DNA of 60,231 nucleotides, counting the filler. It is 2 parts of 2 records of this genome, joined end to end, with 100 filler letters (N's around TTAATTAATTAA, not from the genome) between each part and the next. Parts side by side here need not be neighbours in the genome. Positions count along the whole stretch, not along the records: positions 1 to 29,949 come from SRR2962707_3635; 1 more part is not named here. One strand, given 5' to 3'. This document shows, piece after piece, positions 105-18,228 of the stretch (positions within the stretch are counted from its first letter, which is position 1; each line of letters starts with the position of its first letter). The notes under the pieces are model-generated. The model ran no database searches. It saw nothing but the letters and a program-made list of their open reading frames with translations, and had not been told where the DNA came from. The position numbers and the translations under genes were made by a program.

Positions 105-881
105 ATGAACAATGAAAAGTGCATCAACTGTGCCTCTCCGGTAGTTGGAAATTACTGTTCAAACTGCGGCCAGAAGGCTGAAGTACTTCCAATAACCTGG
201 AAGGGCTTAATAAGCGAACTTAGCTCTCGCTGGCTTGGGGCAGATAACAGGATCGTGCGAACATTTATTGGTCTATGGGCCAGGCCCAAAAAAGTAATTT
301 CAGAATATCTGGAAGGAAATCGTGTCAAATACATTGGGCCCCTGTCATACCTTGTTGTGATGAGTTTTTTGTATGTTTTATCATTCCAGTTGACTGGATT
401 CACTCCGGAGGAAATGATGAATGAAACCTCTCGAATGTTCCAATCGTCGGATCAGGAGCTTTCGGAAAGTCAGCAGCAGTTTATTAATGATTATACACAG
501 TTGTTTTCTAAAAATATGCGCTTGCTTGTAGGTGTCATTATACCTTTTACAGCACTTGCAATGACTATTTTTTACAAGAGGAGAAATTATTTACAAAACT
601 TTTTGATCATCAGTTATGTGGTCGCACAACTTTTATGGGTCAGTATGCTTGCAGTCGTTCTCGCGGCATACACAGACAACTTGTTTTTTACCGAAGGCCT
701 GATTGTTAATATAGTTTACAGTGTCATAATTCTAGGATTGATGAACCCTCAGAAGTCCCTCCTTTGGACCTATACTAAAGCCTTTTTAGTATGGGTCGTC
801 GGGTATTTGCTTTTCATGCTTACGATATCGATCAGTACTTTAATCTACATGATCACGTCGCTTCAGCAAACGAATGGCTAG
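105..881 (+). CDS. DUF3667 domain membrane protein with N-terminal zinc ribbon
   Basis: CINC...YCSNCGQK zinc ribbon, 'EYLEGNRVKYIGP' motif and several TM helices. ATG at 105 preferred over TTG at 87. Confidence 0.75.
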   Translation: MNNEKCINCASPVVGNYCSNCGQKAEVLPITWKGLISELSSRWLGADNRIVRTFIGLWARPKKVISEYLEGNRVKYIGPLSYLVVMSFLYVLSFQLTGFTPEEMMNETSRMFQSSDQELSESQQQFINDYTQLFSKNMRLLVGVIIPFTALAMTIFYKRRNYLQNFLIISYVVAQLLWVSMLAVVLAAYTDNLFFTEGLIVNIVYSVIILGLMNPQKSLLWTYTKAFLVWVVGYLLFMLTISISTLIYMITSLQQTNG

Positions 882-884
882 AGG

Positions 885-1532
885 TCACTTCACCCATCTT
901 TTTGACATAATTGAAATAAGTGGACTACCTATCCCAACGGGTAGGACCCAAAGCAACCACTGATAGGAACTTCCGGGCATAAAAATATTTGGATTTTGCA
1001 CGGCAAAAGCAGTGACTGCCGCAATGTAACTCCCGCCCATCGCCCCAATGTGTTGTTTTAGCCACCAGCCTTTTTCTACCTCCGGTTTTTGGATGAAAAA
1101 CTTCAGATCCTGGAAGCCATTTGACAAGGTGAAGAAACCAAACAGTCCGCACAGAAAAGCAAGTACCGTATTGGACGAGGTAAAGTACAGATTAACTCCA
1201 TAGATGATTATCCCTATACCAAATATCGAAGTGACTATTGCAACTGCCCAATCATACCATTTTTCACCACCTGCCTTTCGTCGCTTCAACACTCTGACTC
1301 CTACAAAAGATGCGTGAAATGTTAATACAGCAATAACCATCAAAAAAGCGCTGAATCGATAAAATAGGATAATACCCCAGGCACTCAAACAAATCCACCA
1401 CATAGCACCAACATATATCCTTCCAATGGTTTTGTGATTGGCTCCACCTTTTCGGTTAAACATTTGTACCAGCCCGAGGAGGAGAACAGTTCCACCGCAG
1501 ATGATATGAGAAATGATCAGAAATTGCTCCAT
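885..1532 (-). CDS. DUF2306-like integral membrane protein
   Basis: Conserved His motifs (SHIICG, KGGANHKTIGRIY, WWLKQHIGAMGGSYIAAVTAF) and about 6 TM helices; start at MEQFL. Confidence 0.7.
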   Translation of the reverse strand: MEQFLIISHIICGGTVLLLGLVQMFNRKGGANHKTIGRIYVGAMWWICLSAWGIILFYRFSAFLMVIAVLTFHASFVGVRVLKRRKAGGEKWYDWAVAIVTSIFGIGIIIYGVNLYFTSSNTVLAFLCGLFGFFTLSNGFQDLKFFIQKPEVEKGWWLKQHIGAMGGSYIAAVTAFAVQNPNIFMPGSSYQWLLWVLPVGIGSPLISIMSKRWVK

Positions 1533-1642
1533 CTTGAAATGCTTTATGCAATTCAATAACAGAAACCACCAATTCAAAAAATAACAATACCGAACTGTTG
1601 AAAAGGATAGATGAGTTGTATGATGCAAACTATCTTAGTTCT

Positions 1643-2155
1643 ATGTATCAGGCACTTTCCAAGATTTCGAGCACCTATTTCCCAAAGCAAAAGCACCGGC
1701 TTTTCAAGCTGTTTTTCAATTTGTCTCCGATGTACAGACGGACGACAGGGAGAGTGACCAAGGTGGAGCCGGATTTTAGCAGCGTTGAGGTAAAAATCCC
1801 GATCTCCTACAAAAACAAAAATTATGTAGGGACCATATTCGGCGGCAGTCTATTTGCGGCCACTGATCCCATTTACATGGTTCAGCTGATTCAAATTCTG
1901 GGAATGGACTATGTGGTTTGGGACAAGTCCTCAATGGTAAAGTTTAAACGCCCAGCCAGCTCAGATGCCTATGCTGTTTTTGCGTTTTCGGAAGATGAAA
2001 TCAATCAACTCAAGGCCGATATATCCGAAAAGAAAGAAGTAGATCTGGTGAAGCCGGTCTTACTCACGAGTAAAGAAGGCAAGCTTTTTTGCGAGATTGA
2101 AAAAGTGATTTACGTGGCGAATAAGGAATATTATAAGGAGAAAAAGAAGAGGTAA
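1643..2155 (+). CDS. Hotdog-fold thioesterase-like protein (DUF4442/PaaI-like)
   Basis: 'NKNYVGTIFGGSLFAATDPIYM' and 'VVWDKS..VKFKRP' motifs. Confidence 0.8.
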   Translation: MYQALSKISSTYFPKQKHRLFKLFFNLSPMYRRTTGRVTKVEPDFSSVEVKIPISYKNKNYVGTIFGGSLFAATDPIYMVQLIQILGMDYVVWDKSSMVKFKRPASSDAYAVFAFSEDEINQLKADISEKKEVDLVKPVLLTSKEGKLFCEIEKVIYVANKEYYKEKKKR

Positions 2156-2191
2156 GTGAAGCAGACACTTGGCAGATGGCTAAGTAAGACC

Positions 2192-3276
2192 ATGCGCTAT
2201 ATCGCATGTTAGATTCAGATTAATGGCAAGAACCCCAATAGTTCTGAAACACCTTCATGACCAATTTGTCGTTTTCCTGATTGCTCATGATCAAATGACG
2301 ATAAAGTTCTCCCCCATTTGTTTCGCTGCTATTTATGATGAAGTCGGGAGTTCCATCTTGATTCAAGTCACAAGCAAAAAGGATTTCAATGAAGTCATGA
2401 TGCTTAATGTTGATTTCGTTGATCAAATTTTGTATTACGAATCCCTCGCCATCAAATCCAGTTAGTCTTAGTTGATAGTCATTTATTTTCGGTCTCACAT
2501 TGCTGTTCATATGATTAATAAAGGCTGCAGAGTCAGCTGATCCAATAACGTCAAGTTTGTAGTCTATTTTCTTATTTCTGTCATATCCTACAGGAATGCT
2601 CATTCCAGGATAAAGAAATTTATTTTCGTGATTACCAAAGTCAATATTTGGAATTCTTGCTAGAAATATTTCTTGTTCATCAATTCTTTCGATAGTTCCA
2701 TATAATAATTCTGATTTTAAAGAATCTTGAGTTCGAATCTTGTAGTTAACATATCCATCTGGGCTGTAAAATGGTTCAATTGTAATGTCAATAGACTTAA
2801 TCTGATATGAGTTGTATCTTTTTTTGTAAACGCCATACCAATAAAGCTTTGTGTTGAGAAATACGTGATCTCCACACATTAATTCTCCCTCGAACAAGAA
2901 CTGTGATTGTTCTTGGCTGAAATCGGGATTGAGGTCTTGAATAGAATCAGTAAAATATGCATTGAAAGCATAACCTATATTACTCCCATATTGGACTGCT
3001 TCCCATTGACCTGGAAGATTTTCCAGTGTGTCGGGTTTGGGTTTCAAATCAGGATCATTCAGTTTGGTAACCATTTCACCAAAAGGAACACTAGTTTTTA
3101 TATTGGAGTTTTTGTTAGGATTAGTTCTTATATTGATTCCAGATTTAGAAATTACCATGAACTGATTATGCTTCATCCAGCTTTGTGAAAAACAGTTCGA
3201 GTAGATAAATAGCAATGCAATGATGCTTAAGAGCCTAGTGATCATAATTTGAATCTAACATCTACATATAGCGTAT
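2192..3276 (-). mobile_element. Putative integron-like gene cassette bounded by attC-like half sites (imperfect ~31-bp inverted repeats)
   Basis: On the gene strand, CGCTATAT-N6-GTTAGAT ends 7 nt before the ATG (3273-3253) and ATCTAAC-N5-ATATAGCG starts 5 nt after the TAA (2214-2195). The cargo is visibly AT-richer than its neighbours. Confidence 0.55.
2220..3245 (-). CDS. Secreted protein with N-terminal bacterial SH3 domain
   Basis: Signal peptide, then SH3b pattern 'SGINIRTNPN...VPFGEMV...W..VQYGSNIGYAFNAY'; C-terminal 'DLNQDGTPD' FG-GAP-like loop. Confidence 0.75.
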   Translation of the reverse strand: MITRLLSIIALLFIYSNCFSQSWMKHNQFMVISKSGINIRTNPNKNSNIKTSVPFGEMVTKLNDPDLKPKPDTLENLPGQWEAVQYGSNIGYAFNAYFTDSIQDLNPDFSQEQSQFLFEGELMCGDHVFLNTKLYWYGVYKKRYNSYQIKSIDITIEPFYSPDGYVNYKIRTQDSLKSELLYGTIERIDEQEIFLARIPNIDFGNHENKFLYPGMSIPVGYDRNKKIDYKLDVIGSADSAAFINHMNSNVRPKINDYQLRLTGFDGEGFVIQNLINEINIKHHDFIEILFACDLNQDGTPDFIINSSETNGGELYRHLIMSNQENDKLVMKVFQNYWGSCH

Positions 3277-3350
3277 AAAGTGTACTATATCTGCTTAAAT
3301 GTGATATAAAACTAATAAATACCTCCCTTACACCTCTTTAGTTTGATTCA

Positions 3351-3381
3351 GTCGTCCCACCACTCTGAGTGATGGGACGAC
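3351..3381. repeat. 31-bp REP-like palindrome, copy 1
   Basis: GTCGTCCCACCACTCTGAGTGATGGGACGAC; related copies at 18278, 23092 and 26234. Confidence 0.85.
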
Positions 3382-3423
3382 TTTTTTTTGCTTGCTGGAG
3401 AAATTGGTCAGTTTGGAAAGGAC

Positions 3424-4593
3424 TCACCCCTTAATCGGCATCCGCTTAAACTCCTTTGTTCGGTCAAACAGGTATCGATACGTGTGATGCGTTTTCACCA
3501 CATCACCGCCTACCTGCTCTACTACCTTAATCATCTTAGGATTAAAATCGCCGATCCAGTTCATCTCCAGGTCTTTGTATCGTGTGTACTTGTCCTGCAC
3601 CATCACTCTGGTGGCCATTATTAAGGCACCATCCACGCCTTTCCCTTGGTGCTCTGGAGAAATCCCAAACACGAGACCGATCATTTTGGTATTGGTCCGC
3701 ATGAGTTTGTGATAGAGAAACTTAAGCTTTCCGAGGAGGTCAAGCTTTCCGTTTACATGCTTAAACACCTGGTTTAGCTCAGGGATGTTAATGTAAAAAC
3801 CTACCGGCTTGTCTTTGTGATAGCCAAACCACATGATCTTTTCATCCATGATTGGCTTCATTTTTTTGATGATCGCATTGGCCTGTACGGAAGTCATTTC
3901 TGCCACTCCCGGATGTCTGGCCCAGGCATCATTATATACTGTTCGGAAGTCCTCTGCGTATTCCTTTAATTTCTTTTTTTCGATGTGCCTGAAGGTATAA
4001 TCAGGGTCTTTACTAGCGGCCTCAGCTTTTTCATATAATCGATCGCTTAGCGGATCCATCACCGGTCGCCCAAAGGTGAATTGCTTGAAATACATTTTGA
4101 ATCCGTAGGTTTCAAAAAGTTCTACGTAATAAGGGAAGTTGTAATTACACTGATAGTTCGGTGGTCGGTCAAATCCGTCTACCAACAGTCCCCACCAGGT
4201 ATCCCGGTCACCAAAATTGATCGGCCCATCCATGGCTTCCATGCCTCTTTCTTCCAGCCATTTTTTTCCGGTATCAAACAACAGGTTGGCTGCTTCCTGA
4301 TCATTGATGCATTCAAAAAAACCTACTCCACCGGTGGGTTGATCATTGTCTTTATTGACCGTCTTTTGATTAATGAAAGCAGCAATTCTTCCAATGGTTT
4401 CTCCATTGTCGTTTTGTAAGATCCATCGTGTACACTCACCATTTCTGAAAAACTTATTCACCTTCGGATCAAATACCCCGTTGATGTCTTTGTCAAGCGG
4501 TCGTATCCAGTTGGGCTCGTCCTTGTAAAGGCGAATGGGGAACTGCAAAAATTCGTTAGCTGTTTTCTTATCCTGTACTTCTATGACGTGCAT
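3424..4593 (-). CDS. YghO-like GNAT-fold protein (possible bacterial ceramide synthase homologue)
   Basis: 'GRIAAFIN..GGVGFFECIND', 'GPINFGDRDTWWGLLVDGF', 'YNFPYY' and 'EMNWIGDFNPKM' motifs; start at MHVIEV. Confidence 0.65.
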   Translation of the reverse strand: MHVIEVQDKKTANEFLQFPIRLYKDEPNWIRPLDKDINGVFDPKVNKFFRNGECTRWILQNDNGETIGRIAAFINQKTVNKDNDQPTGGVGFFECINDQEAANLLFDTGKKWLEERGMEAMDGPINFGDRDTWWGLLVDGFDRPPNYQCNYNFPYYVELFETYGFKMYFKQFTFGRPVMDPLSDRLYEKAEAASKDPDYTFRHIEKKKLKEYAEDFRTVYNDAWARHPGVAEMTSVQANAIIKKMKPIMDEKIMWFGYHKDKPVGFYINIPELNQVFKHVNGKLDLLGKLKFLYHKLMRTNTKMIGLVFGISPEHQGKGVDGALIMATRVMVQDKYTRYKDLEMNWIGDFNPKMIKVVEQVGGDVVKTHHTYRYLFDRTKEFKRMPIKG

Positions 4594-4652
4594 GGAGGCA
4601 AATTTTAGGCAAAGAAAGCCATTCAATTTTTAAATATTAAAAAAGCTAAGTT

Positions 4653-8809: not shown

Positions 8810-9571
8810 TTAGCTCAAAAACTCCATTACCATTTCCCCCAATTCATTTGGTTTCTCGGCATGCACCCAATGGCCTGCATCTTTCACTGATGCAATCAAT
8901 GCTTTTGGAAAATGCTCACGAATCAGGTCATGGTCCTCATCCGTGATGTAATCTGATTTGCTTCCCGCAATGAACAACGTGGTGCCATCAAAACTCACAT
9001 CACCTTCAAGCCCTTCTCCCACGTTTTCTACTGCCCGTTCAATGGCGTCCACATTCAGCTTCCAGCCAAAGCTTCCATCCTTTTTTCTATCCAGGTTTTT
9101 CAGGATAAACTGACGAACACCAAAGTTGGATATCACCTTGGCCATTTGTTCATCCGCATCTTTCCTGTTTTCCAGATTTTCCAGGTCTACTGAGTGAAAC
9201 CCTTCAAATATCTGCTGGTGGTGAGGAGGGTAATATTTTGGTGCGATATCCACCACAATTAATTTATCCACCTTATCCGGATGTTGGGTAGCCAGGTGCA
9301 TGGCCACTTTCCCCCCCATGGAGTGCCCAAGAATGTGGGCTTTGGTTAGGCCTTCATCATCCATCAACTCTACTACATCTTTCACCATTACATCATAGTC
9401 AAACTCATCACTATGTGGTGAGTTACCATGATTTCTAAGGTCCACCAGATATACTTTAAACTTTTCAGCGAAAACCTTCCCGAGTGTTTGCCAGTTGTCA
9501 GACGAGCCAAACACCCCATGCATGATGATGAGGGGTTCGCCTGTTCCTAATGTTCTAAAATTTAGTTTCAT
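8810..9571 (-). CDS. Alpha/beta hydrolase, YbfF-like esterase
   Basis: HGVFGSSDNW, DLRNHG, GHSMGG nucleophile, AGHWVHAE. Confidence 0.9.
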   Translation of the reverse strand: MKLNFRTLGTGEPLIIMHGVFGSSDNWQTLGKVFAEKFKVYLVDLRNHGNSPHSDEFDYDVMVKDVVELMDDEGLTKAHILGHSMGGKVAMHLATQHPDKVDKLIVVDIAPKYYPPHHQQIFEGFHSVDLENLENRKDADEQMAKVISNFGVRQFILKNLDRKKDGSFGWKLNVDAIERAVENVGEGLEGDVSFDGTTLFIAGSKSDYITDEDHDLIREHFPKALIASVKDAGHWVHAEKPNELGEMVMEFLS

Positions 9572-9683
9572 TGAATTGAAATCGATCGATAGGCTTAATA
9601 AATGACAAAAACGGGCATTTTGTTCATTTACCTACCCACAAAATGGTTTTGACTCAAAGTTACATATTACCTTCACGAGCTTT

Positions 9684-11042
9684 ATGAACTCGATCAGCAC
9701 ATTTCTGGCAGATGCGGTGAACTTTATTTGGGGACTGCCATTGCTTATTCTTTTGCTTGGCGGAGGTTTTTTTCTGCTTGTTTATTCACGATTCCTTCCC
9801 TTTCGATACCTCAGACATGCCATTAATATTTTAAGAGGAAAATATGATGATCCCAACGACCCGGGAGAGATCAGCCATTTCCAGGCGCTGAGTGGAGCTC
9901 TTGCTGCCACCATCGGCATGGGAAATATCAGCGGTGTTGCATTAGCTATTGCGGCGGGAGGCCCTGGTGCCATGTTTTGGATGTGGATGAGTGCGTTTGT
10001 TGGAATGGCCACCAAATTCTTTACCTGTACACTAGCAGTGCAGTTCAGAGGCAAGGATTCCGAAGGGGAGCTGCAGGGAGGTCCAATGTACGTTATCAGG
10101 GAAGCACTAGGTAAAAAATGGATGCCATTAGCCGGGTTCTTTTGTGTAGCAGGTTTCTTTGGAGCGACACCCGTCTTTCAGACGAATCAAATGGTGGCGG
10201 TATTTAAAAATGTAGTGCTGGTACCTATTGGGGTGGAAAGTTCCTTTATCGTTAACCTATCCATAGGAATTGTGATTGCCACTCTTGTGGCCATAGTGAT
10301 TCTTGGGGGAATCAAACGGATTGGAAACGTTGCTTCCAAGCTGGTTCCTTTTATGGTTGTCCTATTTGTGATCAGCGTGCTGGCTATTATGATCACCAAT
10401 CCGGCGGAAATCATCCCATCTTTTCTTTTCATCATCGAGGATGCATTTACAGCCAAGGCAGTATTAGGGGGAGCAGTAGGAGCAGTTATAGTGGAAGGGG
10501 CAAAACGTGCAGCATTTTCAAATGAAGCAGGTATTGGAATGGCACCACTCATGCATGGAGCAGCTAAAACGAAAGAACCGGTACGTGAAGGATTGGTAGC
10601 TATGTTAGGGCCTACCATTGATACTATCATCATCTGTACTATGACCGGAGTTTGTATCATAATCACTGGCGTCTGGAATAGTGGCGAAGCTGATGGTATT
10701 GTAATGACGGCCAGTGCCTTTGAGAAAGGGTTACCTGGCTTTGGTCCCGTTGTATTAATGGTCTGTGTAATGGTATTTGCCATAACGACCATTTTTGGCC
10801 TGGCTTATTACGGTCAAAAGTGTCTTTCATTTTTGATCGGGGCGAAATATGGCAGGTATTTTTACTACTGGTACATTGCGCTGGTGCTGGTTGGATCGGT
10901 TGCATCCTTAGCAGATGTGGTCAACCTGGTTTTTGTAGCCTACGGGTTAATGGCGTTTCCAACCATGATTTCAACCGTAATACTCGCTCCTAAAGTGATG
11001 GAAGCAACGAAGAAGTATTTTAGTGAAGTATATAAATCGTAA
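9684..11042 (+). CDS. Sodium:alanine/glycine symporter (AGCS family)
   Basis: 'ATIGMGNISGVA', 'GGPGAMFWMW', 'GGPMY', 'FSNEAGIG'. Confidence 0.93.
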   Translation: MNSISTFLADAVNFIWGLPLLILLLGGGFFLLVYSRFLPFRYLRHAINILRGKYDDPNDPGEISHFQALSGALAATIGMGNISGVALAIAAGGPGAMFWMWMSAFVGMATKFFTCTLAVQFRGKDSEGELQGGPMYVIREALGKKWMPLAGFFCVAGFFGATPVFQTNQMVAVFKNVVLVPIGVESSFIVNLSIGIVIATLVAIVILGGIKRIGNVASKLVPFMVVLFVISVLAIMITNPAEIIPSFLFIIEDAFTAKAVLGGAVGAVIVEGAKRAAFSNEAGIGMAPLMHGAAKTKEPVREGLVAMLGPTIDTIIICTMTGVCIIITGVWNSGEADGIVMTASAFEKGLPGFGPVVLMVCVMVFAITTIFGLAYYGQKCLSFLIGAKYGRYFYYWYIALVLVGSVASLADVVNLVFVAYGLMAFPTMISTVILAPKVMEATKKYFSEVYKS

Positions 11043-11071
11043 TCATTTGGAATGCTGGCACTTAGATGTCA

Positions 11072-11079
11072 TATCTTTG
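11072..11079 (+). promoter_or_regulatory. Bacteroidota -7 promoter element (TATCTTTG) for trkA-trkH
   Basis: TAnnTTTG 23 nt before the ATG; TTTG at 11046-11049. Confidence 0.55.
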
Positions 11080-11102
11080 CGCCCAATATCATTTAAGATA
11101 GG

Positions 11103-12443
11103 ATGAGAATTGTAATAGCTGGAGCCGGTGAGATGGGTTTTCATCTTGCAAAGCTTTTAACCGCTGAAGAGCAGGATATTGTAATCATAGATTCCAATCC
11201 GAATGTGTTGGAATATGTGGGTCAACATCTGGATGTGAGTACGGTGCGCGGAAGCTCTACCTCCCCTCGAATATTGAAGGAAGCCAACATTGGAAAGGCG
11301 GATCTTCTGATAGCCGTAACATCCATTCAGGAAACAAACATCACCACGTGTATTCTTGGTAAAAGCCTGGGAGCAAAAAAGACCATCGCCAGGATTTCGA
11401 ATGTGGAACTTCTCCACCTACGAGACGAATTGAACCTGAGCAATGTCGGAATAGATGAGATTATTTCTCCTGCGTCACTGGCTGCTCGAGAGATCAAGAG
11501 GCTGTTAAAGCAATCAGCACTTACCGACACATTCGAATTTGAGAAAGGCATGCTTTCTCTCGTAGGAATCACAGTGGATGAGGGCTCTCAACTATTCGGA
11601 AAAACATTGACAGAAACAGCCTACCTCAATCCTGATCACAATTTCACCACGGTTGCCATCCTTCGGGACAATAAAACGATTATTCCATATGGTGAGAATA
11701 AGTTTCAAAAAGATGATCACGCTTATTTCATTGCTCAGCCGGACGGTATTGAGCGTGTAACTGCACTGGCAGGAAAGGAAAGCTTTGAAATCAAGAACGT
11801 GATGATTCTGGGAGCCAGTAAGGTGGGAATACATACAGCTAAGCTGCTTAGCAAAAAGTACAACATCAAATTAGTAGAAGCTGACAAGGAAAAATGTCTG
11901 CATCTGGTTGATGAGCTACCGGATACCATGATCATAAATGGTGATGGCAGGGACATCAACTTGCTTAGGGAGGAAAGTATTGATCGGATGGATGCCTTTG
12001 TGGCATTGACCGAAAATTCGGAGACGAATATTATGGCTTCATTGGTGGCCAAAAATCAAGGAGTGAGGAAAACCATTGCTTTGGTAGAAAATGTGGATTA
12101 TATCCACCTATCTCAAAGTATTGGCATTGATACGTTGATCAATAAGAAATTAATCGCAGCAAGTTTTATTTTCAGATATATTCGAAAAGGCGAAGTACTA
12201 AATATCGCGGGTATTCACGGTGTGGATGCAGAAATTCTGGAGTTTGAGTTAGGAGAGAAATCACGTATTGTTGAGCAGCCATTGAAAGATCTGGATTTCC
12301 CGAAAACGGCAATCGTGGGAGGAGTCATAAGAGATGGACGGGGAATTGCAGTAAGAGGAAATTTTGAATTCAAACCAAAGGATCGCGTAGTAGTTCTTTC
12401 AAAACCGGAATGTATTAGAAAAGTGGAGAGCTTCTTCAAATAG
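11103..12443 (+). CDS. trkA: Trk potassium uptake NAD-binding subunit
   Basis: Two RCK/Rossmann units (IAGAGEMG; ILGASKVG), 446 aa, adjacent to trkH. Confidence 0.95.
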   Translation: MRIVIAGAGEMGFHLAKLLTAEEQDIVIIDSNPNVLEYVGQHLDVSTVRGSSTSPRILKEANIGKADLLIAVTSIQETNITTCILGKSLGAKKTIARISNVELLHLRDELNLSNVGIDEIISPASLAAREIKRLLKQSALTDTFEFEKGMLSLVGITVDEGSQLFGKTLTETAYLNPDHNFTTVAILRDNKTIIPYGENKFQKDDHAYFIAQPDGIERVTALAGKESFEIKNVMILGASKVGIHTAKLLSKKYNIKLVEADKEKCLHLVDELPDTMIINGDGRDINLLREESIDRMDAFVALTENSETNIMASLVAKNQGVRKTIALVENVDYIHLSQSIGIDTLINKKLIAASFIFRYIRKGEVLNIAGIHGVDAEILEFELGEKSRIVEQPLKDLDFPKTAIVGGVIRDGRGIAVRGNFEFKPKDRVVVLSKPECIRKVESFFK

Positions 12444-12446
12444 TTC

Positions 12447-13910
12447 ATGTATTTTAACTACAACTTTAAGGTCATATTTAAAGTTATTGGGATCCTCCTG
12501 TTAATTAACGGGGGCTTCATGCTCACCTGCCTGCCCTTTAGCTTTTACTATAATGAAGGCGACCACCTGGCACTCATTAGTTCTTCGCTCATCACCTTAG
12601 GTATCGGAGCGCTTTTGATGCTCCTAACCCGAAATCTCCAAACCAATGAAATGCGTAAGAAGGACGGTTATCTCATTGTGACAATGGGATGGCTTTCTAT
12701 GTCGTTTTTTGGGTCACTACCTTACATAATCAGCGGCTCGATACCGGACCTTACGAATGCCTTTTTTGAAACACTATCTGGTTTTTCTACAACCGGAGCT
12801 ACGGTGCTTACTGATATTGAATCGGTTCACAAAGGGATATTATTTTGGAGAAGCCTGACACAATGGATTGGTGGTATGGGGATCATCGTATTAACGGTGG
12901 CCATTCTTCCACTCTTAGGGATCGGGGGAATGCAGCTCTTCGTGGCAGAAGCGCCCGGAATCTCTCCTGACAAGTTGCAGCCCAGAATCAAAGAAACAGC
13001 CAAGAGACTATGGATCATCTATTGTGGGTTAACAGTAACCGAGCTGATACTCTTATGGGTTGGGGGCATGAGCTTCTATGATGCGATCAATCACAGTCTT
13101 ACTACTATGGCTACCGGAGGGTTTTCAACCAAAAATGCCAGTATCGCTTACTTTCAGGATCCGTTCATTCAGTATGTCATCATCTTCTTTATGTTCATGG
13201 CTGGCACCAACTTTACCATGACCTATTTTGCCTTACACGGCAACTTCAGAAAGGTGCTGAGAAACGAAGAATTTAGGTTTTACCTGTTCTTTTGTATTGC
13301 TGCGTCGCTGATTGTTGGACTCATTATTTTCAACCTTGGTCATGACACTTTTGAAAAATCCATTCGGGATGCATTGTTTCAAATCATCTCGGTGGTAACA
13401 ACGACCGGATACGTGACGCATGACTATACAGCATGGACCTCTTTCCTCACCGTCTTATTCTTCTTGTTGATGTTTGCCGGAGGTTCAGCGGGTTCCACAG
13501 CAGGGGGAGTCAAATTGGTGCGACATATTTTGCTCATTAAAAACAGTTTGCTTGAGCTCAAACGGATTTTGCATCCATCAGCAATCATCCCGGTTCGCTT
13601 CAATGGAAAATCGGTGAGCAGGGACATCACTTTCAATGTGCTTGCATTCATCATGATTTATATACTGATTGTTTGCTTTGGTGCGATTGCTGTTTCTTCT
13701 TTCGGCATTGATTTCAACACTTCGCTCGGTGCAGTGGCTACCACTTTAGGTAATATTGGGCCGGGAATCGGAGATGTAGGGCCTGTGGATAATTTTGCTC
13801 ATCTGCCAACGGGGGTGAAATGGATTCTTTCGTTCATGATGCTTCTTGGACGTCTGGAGCTTTTTACCGTCCTTATCCTCTTCACACCATTTTTCTGGAG
13901 AAAAGTTTAA
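12447..13910 (+). CDS. trkH: Trk potassium uptake membrane subunit
   Basis: SGFSTTGAT, TGGFS, TTTGY, GSTAGGVK and LGRLE motifs. Confidence 0.95.
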   Translation: MYFNYNFKVIFKVIGILLLINGGFMLTCLPFSFYYNEGDHLALISSSLITLGIGALLMLLTRNLQTNEMRKKDGYLIVTMGWLSMSFFGSLPYIISGSIPDLTNAFFETLSGFSTTGATVLTDIESVHKGILFWRSLTQWIGGMGIIVLTVAILPLLGIGGMQLFVAEAPGISPDKLQPRIKETAKRLWIIYCGLTVTELILLWVGGMSFYDAINHSLTTMATGGFSTKNASIAYFQDPFIQYVIIFFMFMAGTNFTMTYFALHGNFRKVLRNEEFRFYLFFCIAASLIVGLIIFNLGHDTFEKSIRDALFQIISVVTTTGYVTHDYTAWTSFLTVLFFLLMFAGGSAGSTAGGVKLVRHILLIKNSLLELKRILHPSAIIPVRFNGKSVSRDITFNVLAFIMIYILIVCFGAIAVSSFGIDFNTSLGAVATTLGNIGPGIGDVGPVDNFAHLPTGVKWILSFMMLLGRLELFTVLILFTPFFWRKV

Positions 13911-13963
13911 GGCCTTTCAACAGATTGCGTCATCTTTGAGCGATTTCATCAAAAAATGAATAC

Positions 13964-15058
13964 ATGAATATTCTCGGCTACATTATCTGGACTTTCGATC
14001 CGGCCATCTTTACCGTTCCATTCACAGACTATGCTCCCCGGTGGTATGGAGTGTTGTTTGCAGTAGGATTTCTACTATCTCAGCAGGTTTTCTTTCGAAT
14101 TTTCAAAGCAGAAGGTAGACCGGAGAAAGATGTGGAGCGCATTACCGGTTACATGGTTTTGGCCACAATCATAGGTGCAAGGTTAGGTCATTGCCTGTTT
14201 TATAATCCGGAATATTATCTCTCCAACCCCATCAAGATACTGATGGTATGGGAAGGAGGCCTGGCCAGTCATGGAGGTGCCCTGGGGATTTTGGTAGCTA
14301 TCTATTTATTCTGCAGAAAATACAACTATCGATATCTGTGGGTTCTCGACAGGCTTGTGATAGTGGTGGCATTGACCGGAGCGATGATTCGAACGGGGAA
14401 TTTGTTCAATTCTGAGATGGAAGGCACCCTTACCAATTCTAATACGGGAATTGTCTATGCGCGTGCTACATATGATGTGCTCAACTACTCAGAAGATATA
14501 GACGATGTATGGTTTGAAAAAGGAGGAGAGATGCAGAGTGATGAGGATGGGTTTGTCCCTATTACCGCTTATATCGAATATCGACGCGGGTATAAGTTCG
14601 AAATGAAGGATAAGATGTTTGTTGAAAATCAGTTAAAAAGCACACTAGGCAGATATGGAGAAGTGACAGAACATGTGGATTTTGGCGATGGCCCTTTAGC
14701 TTATAAAAATTATCAAAAGGATGGTAAGGAGATCGTTGAAATAGCAGCCATTGGAAAAGTGAGACATGCGGCTCAATTGTATGAAGCCATCTATTGTGTA
14801 GTGCTGATGATTGCGCTTTACTGGCTGTGGTATAAAAGGAGAGATGTACTGCCAGAAGGATTCAACTTTGCCTTATTCATGATCGTGCTTTGGTCGCTTC
14901 GATTTGTGGATGAGTATTTTAAAATGAATCAGGAGGCTTTTGAGGAAGGGATGGTGCTTAACATGGGTCAGATATTGAGTATTCCGCTAACCATTGCAGG
15001 TGTAATTCTGATGATCTGGATCTTTACCAGAGATCGGAAGATGTCGGATTTCAAGTAA
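13964..15058 (+). CDS. lgt: Prolipoprotein diacylglyceryl transferase with enlarged head domain
   Basis: RWYG, GARLGHC, EGGLASHGG, RTGNLFNSE, RHAAQLYEA, GQILS. Confidence 0.92.
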   Translation: MNILGYIIWTFDPAIFTVPFTDYAPRWYGVLFAVGFLLSQQVFFRIFKAEGRPEKDVERITGYMVLATIIGARLGHCLFYNPEYYLSNPIKILMVWEGGLASHGGALGILVAIYLFCRKYNYRYLWVLDRLVIVVALTGAMIRTGNLFNSEMEGTLTNSNTGIVYARATYDVLNYSEDIDDVWFEKGGEMQSDEDGFVPITAYIEYRRGYKFEMKDKMFVENQLKSTLGRYGEVTEHVDFGDGPLAYKNYQKDGKEIVEIAAIGKVRHAAQLYEAIYCVVLMIALYWLWYKRRDVLPEGFNFALFMIVLWSLRFVDEYFKMNQEAFEEGMVLNMGQILSIPLTIAGVILMIWIFTRDRKMSDFK

Positions 15059-15612: not shown

Positions 15613-18228
15613 ATGAATTTCAATAATTATACAATCAAAGCGCAGGAAGCCTTACAAAAAGCAACTGAAATTGCTTCCGGCGGAGGGCAACAAGTAATTG
15701 AGACCGGACATCTGCTTCGGGCCATATTGATGTCGGATGAGAACCTGATATCCTTTCTTTTAAAGAAACTGGGTGCTTCAAAGCAAATGATTGAGGCACC
15801 ACTTGATGAGTTGATGCAAGGTTATCCGAAGGTTTCAGGTGGACAACCGTACTTGTCAAACGATGCAGCAAAAGCACTTCAAAAGGCAGAGAAATATCTG
15901 AAAGATTTTGGTGATGAGTATGTGGCGGTAGAGCACATCATCTTGGGAATTTTGTCCGGGTCTGATAAACCGGCACAAATTTTAAAGGATGCAGGCTTTC
16001 AGGAAAAGCAGCTGATAGCAGCAATTAAAGAATTGCGAGGAGGAGAGAAAGTAACAGATCAAAATGCCGAGTCTAAGTATCGTTCACTCGAGCGATATTC
16101 CAAAAATTTGAATGAGCTGGCCAAAAAAGGAAAGATTGATCCGGTAATTGGTCGAGATGAAGAGATCAGAAGGGTGCTACAGATTTTGGCAAGGAGGACA
16201 AAAAACAACCCGATTCTGCTTGGTGAACCAGGTGTAGGAAAAACGGCTATTGTTGAAGGGATGGCTCAGCGAATTGTAGATGGGGATGTGCCGGAGAACC
16301 TGAAGTCAAAAACCATTATCTCTCTGGATATGGGCTTGCTGGTAGCAGGTGCCAAATACAAAGGAGAATTTGAAGAACGTCTAAAGGCAGTAATCAAAGA
16401 AGTGACTGACAGTGATGGAGAGATCATCCTTTTCATTGATGAGATCCATACGCTGATTGGAGCTGGTGGAGGAGGCGAAGGAGCCATGGATGCGGCTAAC
16501 TTATTGAAACCTGCGTTGGCACGAGGGGAGCTTCATGCCATTGGAGCGACCACTTTGCAAGAGTATCAGAAATACATCGAAAAGGATAAGGCACTTGAGA
16601 GACGATTCCAGGCCATTACGGTGGATGAGCCGAGTGTGTCCGACGCTATTTCCATCCTTCGTGGAATCAAGGATAAATACGAAGTACACCATGGTGTAAG
16701 GGTGAAAGATGATGCGGTGATAGCAGCGGTGGAACTCTCTCATCGATACATCGCAGACCGATTTCTTCCGGATAAGGCCATTGACCTGATGGATGAAGCA
16801 GCCTCCAAGCTGCGGATTGAGATTGACTCACTGCCAGAAGAACTGGATGAGCTAAACCGACGCATTATGCAGTTGGAGATTGAGCGGGAAGCGATTAGAA
16901 GGGAAAAGAACAAGGATAAAGAGAAGCAATTAAACAAGGATATTGCAGATCTTGAATCTGAACGAGGGGAGCTGAAAGCAAAGTGGGACAATGAGAAATC
17001 CGTTATTCAGGGATTGCGTGAGACGAAGGAGAATATAGAGAACTATAAGCTGGAAGCTGAGCGCGCGGAGCGTTCGGGTGAGTATGATAAGGTTGCAGAG
17101 ATACGCTATGGGAAAATTGTGGAGGCGGAAAAGAAGCTGGCCGATTATCAGGAACAGCTTCATGAGATGCAGGGAGAAAAGTCCTTATTGAAAGAGGAGG
17201 TAGACGCTGAAGATATTGCGGAGGTTGTGGCCAAGTGGACGGGAATTCCTGTTTCCAAAATGCTGCAAAGTGATCGTGAAAAACTGATCCATCTGGAAGA
17301 GGAACTTGGGAAAAGAGTGGCAGGTCAGTCAGAAGCGATACAAGCGGTATCTGATGCGGTAAGAAGAAGCAGGGCAGGATTGCATGATCCGAAACGGCCG
17401 ATTGGTTCCTTCATCTTTCTGGGGACCACCGGGGTTGGTAAGACAGAGTTGGCCAAGGCATTAGCTGAGTACCTGTTTAACGATGAGAACTCCATGGTTC
17501 GGATTGATATGTCTGAGTACCAGGAGCGTCATGCTGTAAGTCGATTAATAGGTGCGCCTCCGGGATATGTAGGGTATGATGAGGGAGGCCAATTGACAGA
17601 GGCTGTCAGAAGGAAGCCATACAGCGTGATCTTGCTTGATGAGATTGAAAAAGCTCACCCGGATGTTTTCAACATTCTGCTTCAGGTGTTAGATGATGGA
17701 CGGTTGACGGATAATAAAGGTCGTGTGGCGAACTTCAAGAATACGATCATTATTATGACGACCAATATTGGTTCCGGGTTGATCCAGGAAAACTTTGAGA
17801 AGCTGGATGACAAAAATCCTGAGCCGGTGATTGAGGAAACAAAGAATCAGGTCTTTGAACTATTGAAAAAGTCCGTGAGACCCGAATTCCTTAACCGCGT
17901 AGACGAAACGATTATGTTCCGACCACTGAGCAAAGATGACCTTCAGAAAATAGTTGGCATTCAGTTTAAGCTGATCCAGAAAAGGTTGAAGGAGAATGGT
18001 ATTAAGATTGAAGCTGACAATAAGGTGCTTGCTCATCTTGGAAAGATAGGTTTCGATCCACAGTTTGGAGCCAGGCCATTGAAACGAGTGTTGCAGCGAG
18101 AAATTTTGAATGAATTGTCAAAAGAGATTCTTGCCGGCAATATCGAGAAGGACTCAGTGATTGGAGTAACACTCAGTGATCAGGGTACGATTGAATTTCT
18201 GAACCTTGATAAAGTTGAAATAGAATAA
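15613..18228 (+). CDS. clpB: ATP-dependent chaperone ClpB
   Basis: Two AAA+ modules ([16 protein letters not shown]), [10 protein letters not shown], long coiled-coil M domain, GARPLKR. Confidence 0.98.

Follow-up and report, generated by a model that had tools for sequence, protein, structure and literature searches.

What is a gene with integron-type ends doing in the DNA of Ekhidna (Cytophagales, Bacteroidota)? The question is raised by an open reading frame (ORF) of 341 aa at 2220-3245, minus strand, in a 60-kb stretch of Ekhidna DNA made of two joined parts, which we call the window. A first-pass annotation had labelled its product an SH3 protein and proposed that the gene is a lone cassette with attC-style boundaries, stranded at a secondary site. 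We compared the window with the genomes of related bacteria, and the genome-wide statements below concern these relatives of the window's organism. We put the probability at roughly 80% that the SH3 gene is a lone cassette of an integron-like gene-capture system of Ekhidna driven by a tyrosine recombinase, a reading drawn from sequence comparison.

The boundaries of the gene are matched in a way that sets it apart from its neighbors. The plus strand reads CGCTATAT-CGCAT-GTT-AGATTCAGATTA to the left of the ORF (2195-2222) and TAATTTGAATCT-AAC-ATCTAC-ATATAGCG to its right (3245-3273), and every boundary string quoted by the first-pass annotation is present in the sequence. A repeat finder paired inner arms of 17 nt at 2206-2222 and 3245-3261 (94% complementary, 16/17, longest perfect run 12) and outer arms of 11 nt at 2192-2202 and 3266-3276 (91% complementary). 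Taken together, the arms make up terminal inverted repeats that span about 24 nt and contain a single indel. The perfect 8-nt box that had been noted in addition to the 16/17 match, CGCTATAT at 2195-2202, has its complement at 3266-3273. On the plus strand the left end runs box, 5-nt spacer, GTT (2208-2210) and the right end runs AAC (3257-3259), 6-nt spacer, box, which confirms the unequal spacers reported earlier. Among the 55 non-overlapping ORFs of at least 100 aa in the window, the SH3 gene ranked first for an inverted repeat between its start and stop flanks, with a run of 12 and a best 17-mer of 16/17 (runner-up values, 10 and 14). The 12-mer of the repeat is confined to these two places in 60 kb. 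The whole window holds 10 complementary GTT/AAC pairs of at least 9 nt, and only the SH3 pair (10 contiguous complementary nt including GTT/AAC, 14/15 overall) lies at gene boundaries with boxes.

The gene also differs from its surroundings in composition, and it leaves almost no room in its unit. Its GC content of 0.347 is the lowest of the 55 ORFs (next lowest 0.378; window 0.42), and the GC profile falls to 0.29-0.37 over the unit between flanks of 0.42-0.47, in line with the earlier remark that the gene is AT-richer than its flanks. The GTT and AAC cores enclose 1046 nt, and the ORF accounts for 1026 of these, as the description of a gene filling its unit had implied; the remainder, on the gene strand, is 11 nt before the ORF and 9 nt after it.

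We found that the left boundary belongs to a repeat element. In BLAST searches, 2147-2215 recurred at five other places in two congeners, G057 and G166, and element matches were found in 9/11 Ekhidna genomes searched. Alignments showed an element of about 235 nt, 85-94% identical between copies, that starts at AAC and ends sharply at GTT. Within it lies a short hairpin, CATGCG..CGCATG, in which some copies show G-T changes. Rfam returned no family at the element, either in the window or in a full copy.

The ends of the element follow a rule. The 6-7 nt after the element's GTT are the reverse complement of the nucleotides before the AAC of the next site, and this partner AAC lies 480-1100 nt from the GTT. 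We required at least 9 contiguous complementary nt, triplets included, with the partner within 100-1500 nt. The rule held at 23/30 element ends, compared with 3/600 shuffled ends and 0/30 ends on the wrong strand, and the window pair is typical under it. Because the first 6-7 nt of a cassette complement those before its own AAC, a longer stem would close in the circular cassette.

Applying the rule to sister genomes revealed tiled arrays. Thirteen chained cassettes, from 24 pairs in 16 kb, were found in G409, and 17 chained cassettes, from 21 pairs in 24 kb, in G001. The array genes all lie on one strand and fill their units. The sites between cassettes are 109-235 nt long and differ widely in sequence. 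With the GTT end on the right they read AAC-N6-box...box-N5-GTT, which on the gene strand is AAC-N5...N6-GTT. Their boxes co-vary: 7.1/10 positions are complementary within an element and 4.4/10 between elements. The attC-like plan of an imperfect palindrome is present in sister-genome elements of differing sequence and length: R boxes that pair, unpaired spacers of unequal length, L boxes that pair, and a center that varies. A search for the boundary motifs around unrelated ORFs had been proposed in the first-pass annotation. The same architecture surrounds many unrelated ORFs in recombinase-linked arrays. The exact composite motif CGCTATAT-N3-4-ATGTTAGATTCA, allowing up to 2 mismatches, was found in 0/8 genus genomes. 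It gave single 2-mismatch matches in 14/401 family genomes, and the reversed control matched too. We therefore regard the exact arms as unique to the SH3 cassette.

These observations bear on the idea that the unit is a non-autonomous, gene-carrying transposon with terminal inverted repeats, similar to a miniature inverted-repeat transposable element and moved by a transposase encoded elsewhere. Terminal inverted repeats of this length would suit such an element, as would an IS200-like Y1 transposase near one G409 array. However, the arms differ for every cassette, so that a transposase would have only GTT/AAC in common to bind. The left arm also runs on into the 235-nt element outside the repeat, and no direct repeat was noticed at the unit ends by eye (no search for target-site duplications was run). 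We consider a transposon of this kind very improbable.

The transposase gene itself (Y1_Tnp, E 5.6e-08) is at L033:8865-9479, a few kb from one end of the 13-cassette array; no recombinase lies near this array. This gene prompted us to consider the elements as REP/RAYT-type repeats. We ruled this out, as the elements are directional, cassette-tiled and linked to a tyrosine recombinase. In L033 and L034 joined, G409 also carries an identical stretch of about 40 nt (AAC-AATTAT-ATAAACG...) at 17077-17282 and from 25540 onward. One copy is internal to the array and continues directly into the right half of a different type of element, and the other lies at the array end. This stretch may be a hybrid site from recombination between an attI-like and an attC-like site.

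Arrays in several sister genomes are headed by a tyrosine recombinase gene. The best matches to TIGR02249, the integron integrase model, in five Ekhidna genomes lie near elements. The clearest layout is in G001, where a gene for a 296-aa recombinase (L138:18594-19484, minus strand) is followed, 28 nt past its stop, by a site and then by the 17 co-directional cassettes. This site reads AAC-TATAAT-hairpin on the plus strand. G411 shows the full layout, and G057 retains an attI-like site beside a recombinase gene fragment; arrays in sister genomes begin about 30-55 nt after the recombinase stop. A recombinase divergent from the array, the view from G407 and G409b, was ruled out by G001, G411 and G057, in which the gene is upstream and co-directional. 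The Bacteroidota -7 promoter consensus is TAnnTTTG. The site that follows the recombinase gene runs, when read on the gene strand, TATATTTG, hairpin, 6-nt spacer, GTT. Because TATATTTG fits the -7 box and is followed by this hairpin, spacer and core, the site looks like the equivalent of attI plus a promoter.

The recombinase is related to integron integrases without being one by profile. It passes NF040815, the model for XerA and integron integrases (225.7 bits, cut-off 220), and fails TIGR02249 (219.9 bits, cut-off 265), with no match over model positions 185-239. Across sister genomes, the recombinases linked to arrays reach 197-220 bits with this model, in two stretches. Pfam recognizes Phage_integrase and Phage_int_SAM_4. 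The nearest solved relatives are archaeal XerA (E 3.8e-38) and then VchIntI4 (E 5.9e-35, again in two stretches; PDB 5HXY, 4A8E, 2A3V, the last being VchIntI4). Since the TIGR02249 and VchIntI4 matches are split in this way, the enzyme lacks the IntI-specific domain. In the accessible text of two papers, that domain is called essential or defining (PMC8138268, PMC9668308).

An ORF of 136-140 aa with a CxxC...CxxC, Zn-ribbon-like pattern is always divergent from the recombinase gene (L138:19560-19970 in G001, L044:4657-5073 in G411, L048:3967-4389 in G407). Neither Pfam nor NCBIfam has a family that it matches, and it may act with the array recombinase as a partner or regulator.

Traces of movement were found in the arrays. 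In G001 a unit of about 910 nt, comprising an element, a PIN toxin gene and a small partner ORF, occurs twice with 100% identity and with differing neighbors. Identity starts at TAAC and stops at AACG, placing both breakpoints within the AAC core. Read on the gene strand, the mobile unit is therefore the gene or genes together with the site that follows, and the cut falls within the GTT/AAC core. Integron cassettes behave alike, with crossover between bases 1 and 2 of GTTRRRY, according to the available part of PMC8876359. A cassette ending in AGAATCAGTC has different right-hand partners in G409 and G407. Twelve of the 17 cassette proteins of G001 have no Pfam family, and the cargo consists mostly of ORFans and toxin-antitoxin pairs, with a few immunity-like domains (MORN_2/TonB_C, DUF3885). 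This content is typical of chromosomal integrons.

Could the SH3 gene nevertheless be an ordinary chromosomal gene, with the downstream repeat a terminator or 3'-UTR-type element and the inverted repeat a matter of chance or of pairing between mRNA ends? In its favor are the element's hairpin, with the G-T changes in some copies, and the distant SH3-family genes elsewhere, which are not cassettes. Such a gene would have to explain away a repeat that ranks 1/55, the cassette-end rule and the lowest GC in the window, together with a duplicated unit that has core breakpoints, arrays linked to a recombinase, and the lack of an Rfam family. We give this explanation next to no credence.

We then considered what is left of the system around the SH3 cassette. 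An element profile built from 18 full copies (239 positions) matched the 60 kb by nhmmer solely at 2148-2213 (model positions 171-236, E 1.1e-13). The cassette's own site is reduced to the first ~63 nt of the ~235-nt repeat; the other ~170 nt, including the far box-spacer-GTT, are missing, as the first-pass annotation had surmised in stating that the downstream site lacks its far L'-R' arm. The stop codon of the neighboring hotdog gene (2153-2155) falls inside the far end of this remnant. Because so much of its own site is gone, the cassette would no longer be excisable. The loss of the far ~170 nt, together with a window in which tblastn found no recombinase of the array-linked family, makes the cassette probably immobile; the first-pass annotation had likewise noted no integrase there.

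The upstream flank preserves part of a second site. It aligns with a G001 element (L138:15345-15572), with AAC-ATCnAn-ATATAGCG...CTATATC in common, and it also has the AAC-N6-hairpin plan of attI-like sites. We assign it from motif-level likeness over about 45 nt, because nhmmer does not detect the right flank. The flank looks like the remnant of a real site of the system, not a random secondary site. The idea of a stranded Bacteroidota cassette is borne out by the recombinase-linked arrays of sister genomes, with its secondary-site part refined in this way. A candidate -7 box for the SH3 gene lies farther upstream (Table 1), and its distance from the GTT core is similar to the one seen for TATATTTG in G057 and G411, within their attI-like sites. 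Expression of the SH3 gene, if any, would be driven from this short upstream remnant.

As sister genomes show, the platform comprises an XerA/IntI-like recombinase, an attI-like site ending in GTT, and co-oriented, mostly single-gene cassettes. Each cassette ends in its own site (AAC, 5-nt spacer, box, variable DNA, box, 6-nt spacer, GTT), and the duplicated unit shows crossover inside the GTT/AAC core. The SH3 cassette would have been inserted by site-specific recombination, its target being a small array or site which decayed afterwards.

A different history would also leave a lone cassette between damaged sites. The SH3 unit could be an array fragment that came here through illegitimate recombination, homologous recombination or a rearrangement on a larger scale, or the recombinase could have inserted the cassette at a chance GTT, the likeness of the upstream flank being accidental. 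Both flanking sites are only fragments, and the whole of 857-3423 varies between species. Sister genomes hold further lone cassettes that are bordered by a truncated element at one end and by an AAC-N6-hairpin site at the opposite end (L041, L045, L051), and no recombinase was found in their 2-3 kb flanks; such remnants are common. The chance-GTT version is opposed by the box, 6-nt spacer and hairpin of real sites in the upstream flank. As a whole we judge this history unlikely, though the data fit import of a fragment as well as they fit a small array that decayed in situ.

The locus differs among relatives. In the nearest genome, G001, 857-3423 is missing, with its DUF2306, DUF4442 hotdog and SH3 genes, and the DUF3667 gene and a 400-aa gene are about 55 nt apart. 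The DUF2306 and hotdog genes are kept in G166 and G057. A check for an empty site, suggested in the first-pass annotation, was positive in G166: only 12 nt separate the hotdog stop from the stop of the 400-aa gene, and the extra window DNA relative to it is 2156-3423. This exceeds the repeat-bounded unit, which is a further point against the transposon. In place of the SH3 unit, G057 has a different gene of 220 aa on the opposite strand. G166 has ~1.2 kb extra between the DUF2306 and hotdog genes. The 400-aa gene (3424-4626, minus strand) is 76-88% identical at the nucleotide level in G001, G057 and G166; it had been labelled a GNAT gene, a label for which we found no Pfam match at E<=0.01. 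The interval 857-3423, which lies between convergent genes, is a small hot spot where genes turn over. Searches for the SH3 protein found it neither in G001 nor in three genus genomes. With arrays in sister genomes and an empty site in G166, the SH3 gene is neither the only ORF with such boundaries nor a syntenic gene inherited vertically.

Metagenomes provided a second view of the junctions. Window DNA was present in five DNA sequencing runs from two studies, and no RNA run was listed. Contigs from four runs are identical to the window and bridge both cassette junctions. Other metagenome contigs share 2159-2211 alone and differ from the window beyond it, as further copies of the element should.

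A hairpin with terminator-like features lies on the plus strand at 3350-3382, with 16-nt arms (94% complementary) and a T-run after it (3350-3390). It is a dispersed repeat with 9 further matches in G001 and loose contig ends at 3350, 3382 and 3388, and it resembles an REP-type or terminator-type element.

The metagenome contigs are relevant to the possibility that the unit is an invertible segment, in which an invertase acts on the inverted arms and flips the SH3 gene with respect to promoters or terminators outside it. The gene is indeed bounded exactly by a true inverted repeat, and the hairpin at 3350-3382 would suit the flipped orientation. Yet matched ends also flank all of the tiled-array cassettes, whose full sites are in direct orientation, and the array units duplicate and swap neighbors rather than flip. 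The hairpin is a dispersed repeat, tblastn found no recombinase of the array family in the window (other invertase families were not searched), and the contigs of the four runs hold one orientation, weak evidence since contigs hide rare forms. An invertible segment is therefore a very remote prospect.

Several observations weigh against a lone cassette of an integron-like system. All of the evidence for recombination is comparative. Neither a recombinase of the array-linked family (by tblastn) nor a second cassette is present in the 60-kb window. The contigs of the four metagenome runs showed the window arrangement only, with no joints, inversion or empty-site form, so that the proposed check showed no circle or inversion; contigs drop rare forms, and the lack of any sign of excision is expected because the window cassette's site is truncated. 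The element profile gave no nhmmer match on the right flank (3231-3430), which is too short and diverged. Seven of the 30 element ends had no partner; at least one of these, L020, was a mis-chosen GTT that pairs at 9 nt. The stretch missing from G001 (857-3423) is larger than the cassette, so that part of the local variability has other causes. Finally, 0/5 of the distant SH3-family loci in other family genomes (L010-L014, five genomes) had cassette-type pairs at the ORF. Even so, the lone-cassette reading keeps the probability given above.

The coordinates of the cassette and of the site remnants are collected in Table 1.

Table 1. The SH3 cassette, its matched arms and the flanking site remnants in window coordinates.
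Feature	Position	Strand	Description
Cassette body	2211..3256	-	Between GTT core 2208-2210 and AAC core 3257-3259 (plus strand), 1046 nt
Cassette gene	2220..3245	-	Predicted exported protein; N-terminal hydrophobic helix, SH3b at about residues 22-102, all-beta remainder
Cassette-specific arm x	2211..2222		Overlaps stop codon
Cassette-specific arm x'	3245..3256		Overlaps last base of start codon; pairs with 2211-2222 except at one position
Remnant of the cassette's own attC-like site	2148..2210	-	AAC core 2208-2210, 5-nt spacer 2203-2207, box ATATAGCG 2195-2202, body of ~45 nt
Putative remnant of the upstream neighbor's site	3257..3290	-	Hairpin 3266-3271 with 3285-3290, box CGCTATAT 3266-3273, 6-nt spacer 3260-3265, GTT 3257-3259
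Candidate Bacteroidota -7 promoter box	3307..3314	-	TAGTTTTA, 7/8 to TAnnTTTG, 47 nt upstream of GTT core

The SH3 label held up better by fold than by sequence. The Pfam SH3_3 match of the 341-aa protein is weak (E 0.0015; 19.1 bits, cut-off 27). In the predicted structure (pLDDT 89.4), residues 22-102 match the SH3b cell-wall-binding domain 4krt_B (Z 10.1, rmsd 2.8, 69 residues aligned). A Foldseek search of the model against PDB found nothing at E<=0.001; the SH3 domain is the sole recognizable part, and the all-beta rest has no clear match. The protein has a single close relative (92% identity) among 5.8 billion proteins. It belongs to a diffuse family with 354 representative proteins at E<=1e-3 and 3 at E<=1e-30. 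In 201 family genomes we found only weak matches, in 5 genomes, and none of 56 pattern matches in JGI metagenome contigs was a relative.

We examined how far the recombinase extends beyond Ekhidna. Relatives with 43-55% identity are encoded at 448/508 candidate places in GTDB species genomes, which span Bacteroidota orders as well as several phyla besides. Those with 49-52% identity include ones on Bacteroidales and Bacteroides contigs of metagenome-assembled genomes (L067, L109, L122). Chains of at least 4 pairs lie downstream of the recombinase at 9/26 loci and upstream at 2/26; several chains of 3 look like noise and were excluded from the counts. The nine downstream chains are in Ekhidna (4), Marinoscillum, Pedobacter, Rubrolithibacter, Sediminicola and Desulfitobacterium. 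The two upstream chains, in Maribacter and Ekhidna To15, both have attC-like arms. The Desulfitobacterium sp. Sab5 locus (L123), from a Firmicute, has eight tiled cassettes with sites of ~62 nt at 8978-14100 and beyond, an integron-like array downstream of a recombinase with 48% identity to that of Ekhidna.

A broader proposal can be put forward tentatively, at somewhat less than even odds: the phylum may harbor, across its breadth, an unrecognized class of integron-like platforms (Cytophagales, Flavobacteriales and Sphingobacteriales, with a look-alike in Desulfitobacterium) that rely on XerA/IntI-like recombinases missing a domain regarded as essential for attC recombination and on sites that reach 235 nt. 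If so, the view that Bacteroidota are devoid of integrons would be overturned. The SH3 cassette itself is a decayed relic of small consequence, of value as a pointer to the system. Taken with the sister genomes, it yields a site definition that can be tested, a crossover position, and a natural test of whether cassette recombination needs the IntI-specific domain. Tiled pairs of GTT+x and x'+AAC are a simple signature that finds arrays missed by attC models and IntI profiles.

The literature on integrons gives the system its interest, since surveys treat Bacteroidota as nearly devoid of them, and rAID-1 (recombinase-associated acquired interbacterial defence), a gene array of Bacteroidales and the one comparable system, is known by gene content only. 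In the portion of PMC9024848 available to us, IntegronFinder surveys of Bacteroidetes list only In0 elements and one Salinibacter integron. A 2024 preprint, as far as its accessible text goes, places Bacteroidota among the clades found without integrons (bioRxiv 10.1101/2024.07.02.601686), and two papers, in their accessible parts, count Bacteroidota among integron-bearing phyla with no detail. Our literature search, which left most subscription journals outside its scope, returned nothing that links integron-like or rAID arrays to Ekhidna, Cytophagales or Flavobacteriales.

The likeness to sedentary chromosomal integrons, and to attC clusters without an integrase (CALINs), is extensive. Both they and the Ekhidna arrays have promoterless single-gene cassettes and imperfect palindromes that start with AAC and end with GTT, to judge from the available parts of PMC4889954, PMC9024848 and PMC8876359. 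Crossover in a GTT core shared with an attI-type site, and a cargo of ORFans and toxin-antitoxin pairs, are further common traits (PMC8876359, in part). Lone or integrase-less clusters exist among CALINs, as here. An integron cassette is an ORF with its own site and with crossover in the GTT core; the window cassette is 1026/1046 nt ORF, and the G001 duplicate begins at TAAC and ends at AACG. Stokes and colleagues reportedly described the 5/6-nt spacer asymmetry of attC sites in 1997, and the Ekhidna sites match it. Homogeneity of sites within one genome, as in the Vibrio repeats, is also shared. The attC sites are 57-141 nt long; the Ekhidna sites, in contrast, measure 109-235 nt. The R-box complementarity of the Ekhidna sites runs 6-7 nt past the triplet, unlike that of integrons, and the Ekhidna recombinase is co-directional with its array, again unlike an integron. 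It also lacks the IntI-specific domain around patch III that defines integron integrases.

Archaeal XerA is the best sequence match of the recombinase, which passes NF040815; XerA and the integron-like subgroup of simple tyrosine recombinases (PMC8138268) are a further group close to it. XerA resolves chromosome dimers at dif, whereas the Ekhidna enzyme heads cassette arrays and has the divergent Zn-ribbon-like ORF.

The arrangement in G001 and G411 recalls rAID-1. In both systems an XerD/Xer-like tyrosine recombinase gene is followed by an array of co-oriented genes, the stretch from the recombinase stop to the first gene holds a conserved motif, and conserved repeat motifs lie between genes, the latter likened here by layout. 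The accessible text of Ross et al. [quoted passage not shown] A later paper, in its accessible part, defines rAID-1 by a recombinase upstream of, and co-directional with, at least 2 short genes of <41% GC (PMC12247911). The G001 and G411 recombinases are upstream and co-directional; the window itself has no recombinase, and its SH3 gene has a GC content of 0.347. The cargo of rAID-1 consists of orphan immunity genes against contact-dependent toxins. Some Ekhidna cassettes encode immunity-like domains, but most carry ORFans and toxin-antitoxin pairs, unlike rAID-1. In the parts of these papers available to us, rAID-1 is described only for Bacteroidales, and close homologues of its recombinase (>50% identity) are said to occur in no other order. 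[quoted passage not shown] If rAID-1 and the Ekhidna arrays are the same system and our reading is true, the anatomy described here (AAC-5-box...box-6-GTT, cassette-specific stems and core crossover) would supply that missing mechanism. The resemblance of the Ekhidna system to rAID-1 is one of layout. Because its recombinase lacks the IntI-specific domain, we describe the system as integron-like and rAID-like and not as a strict integron.

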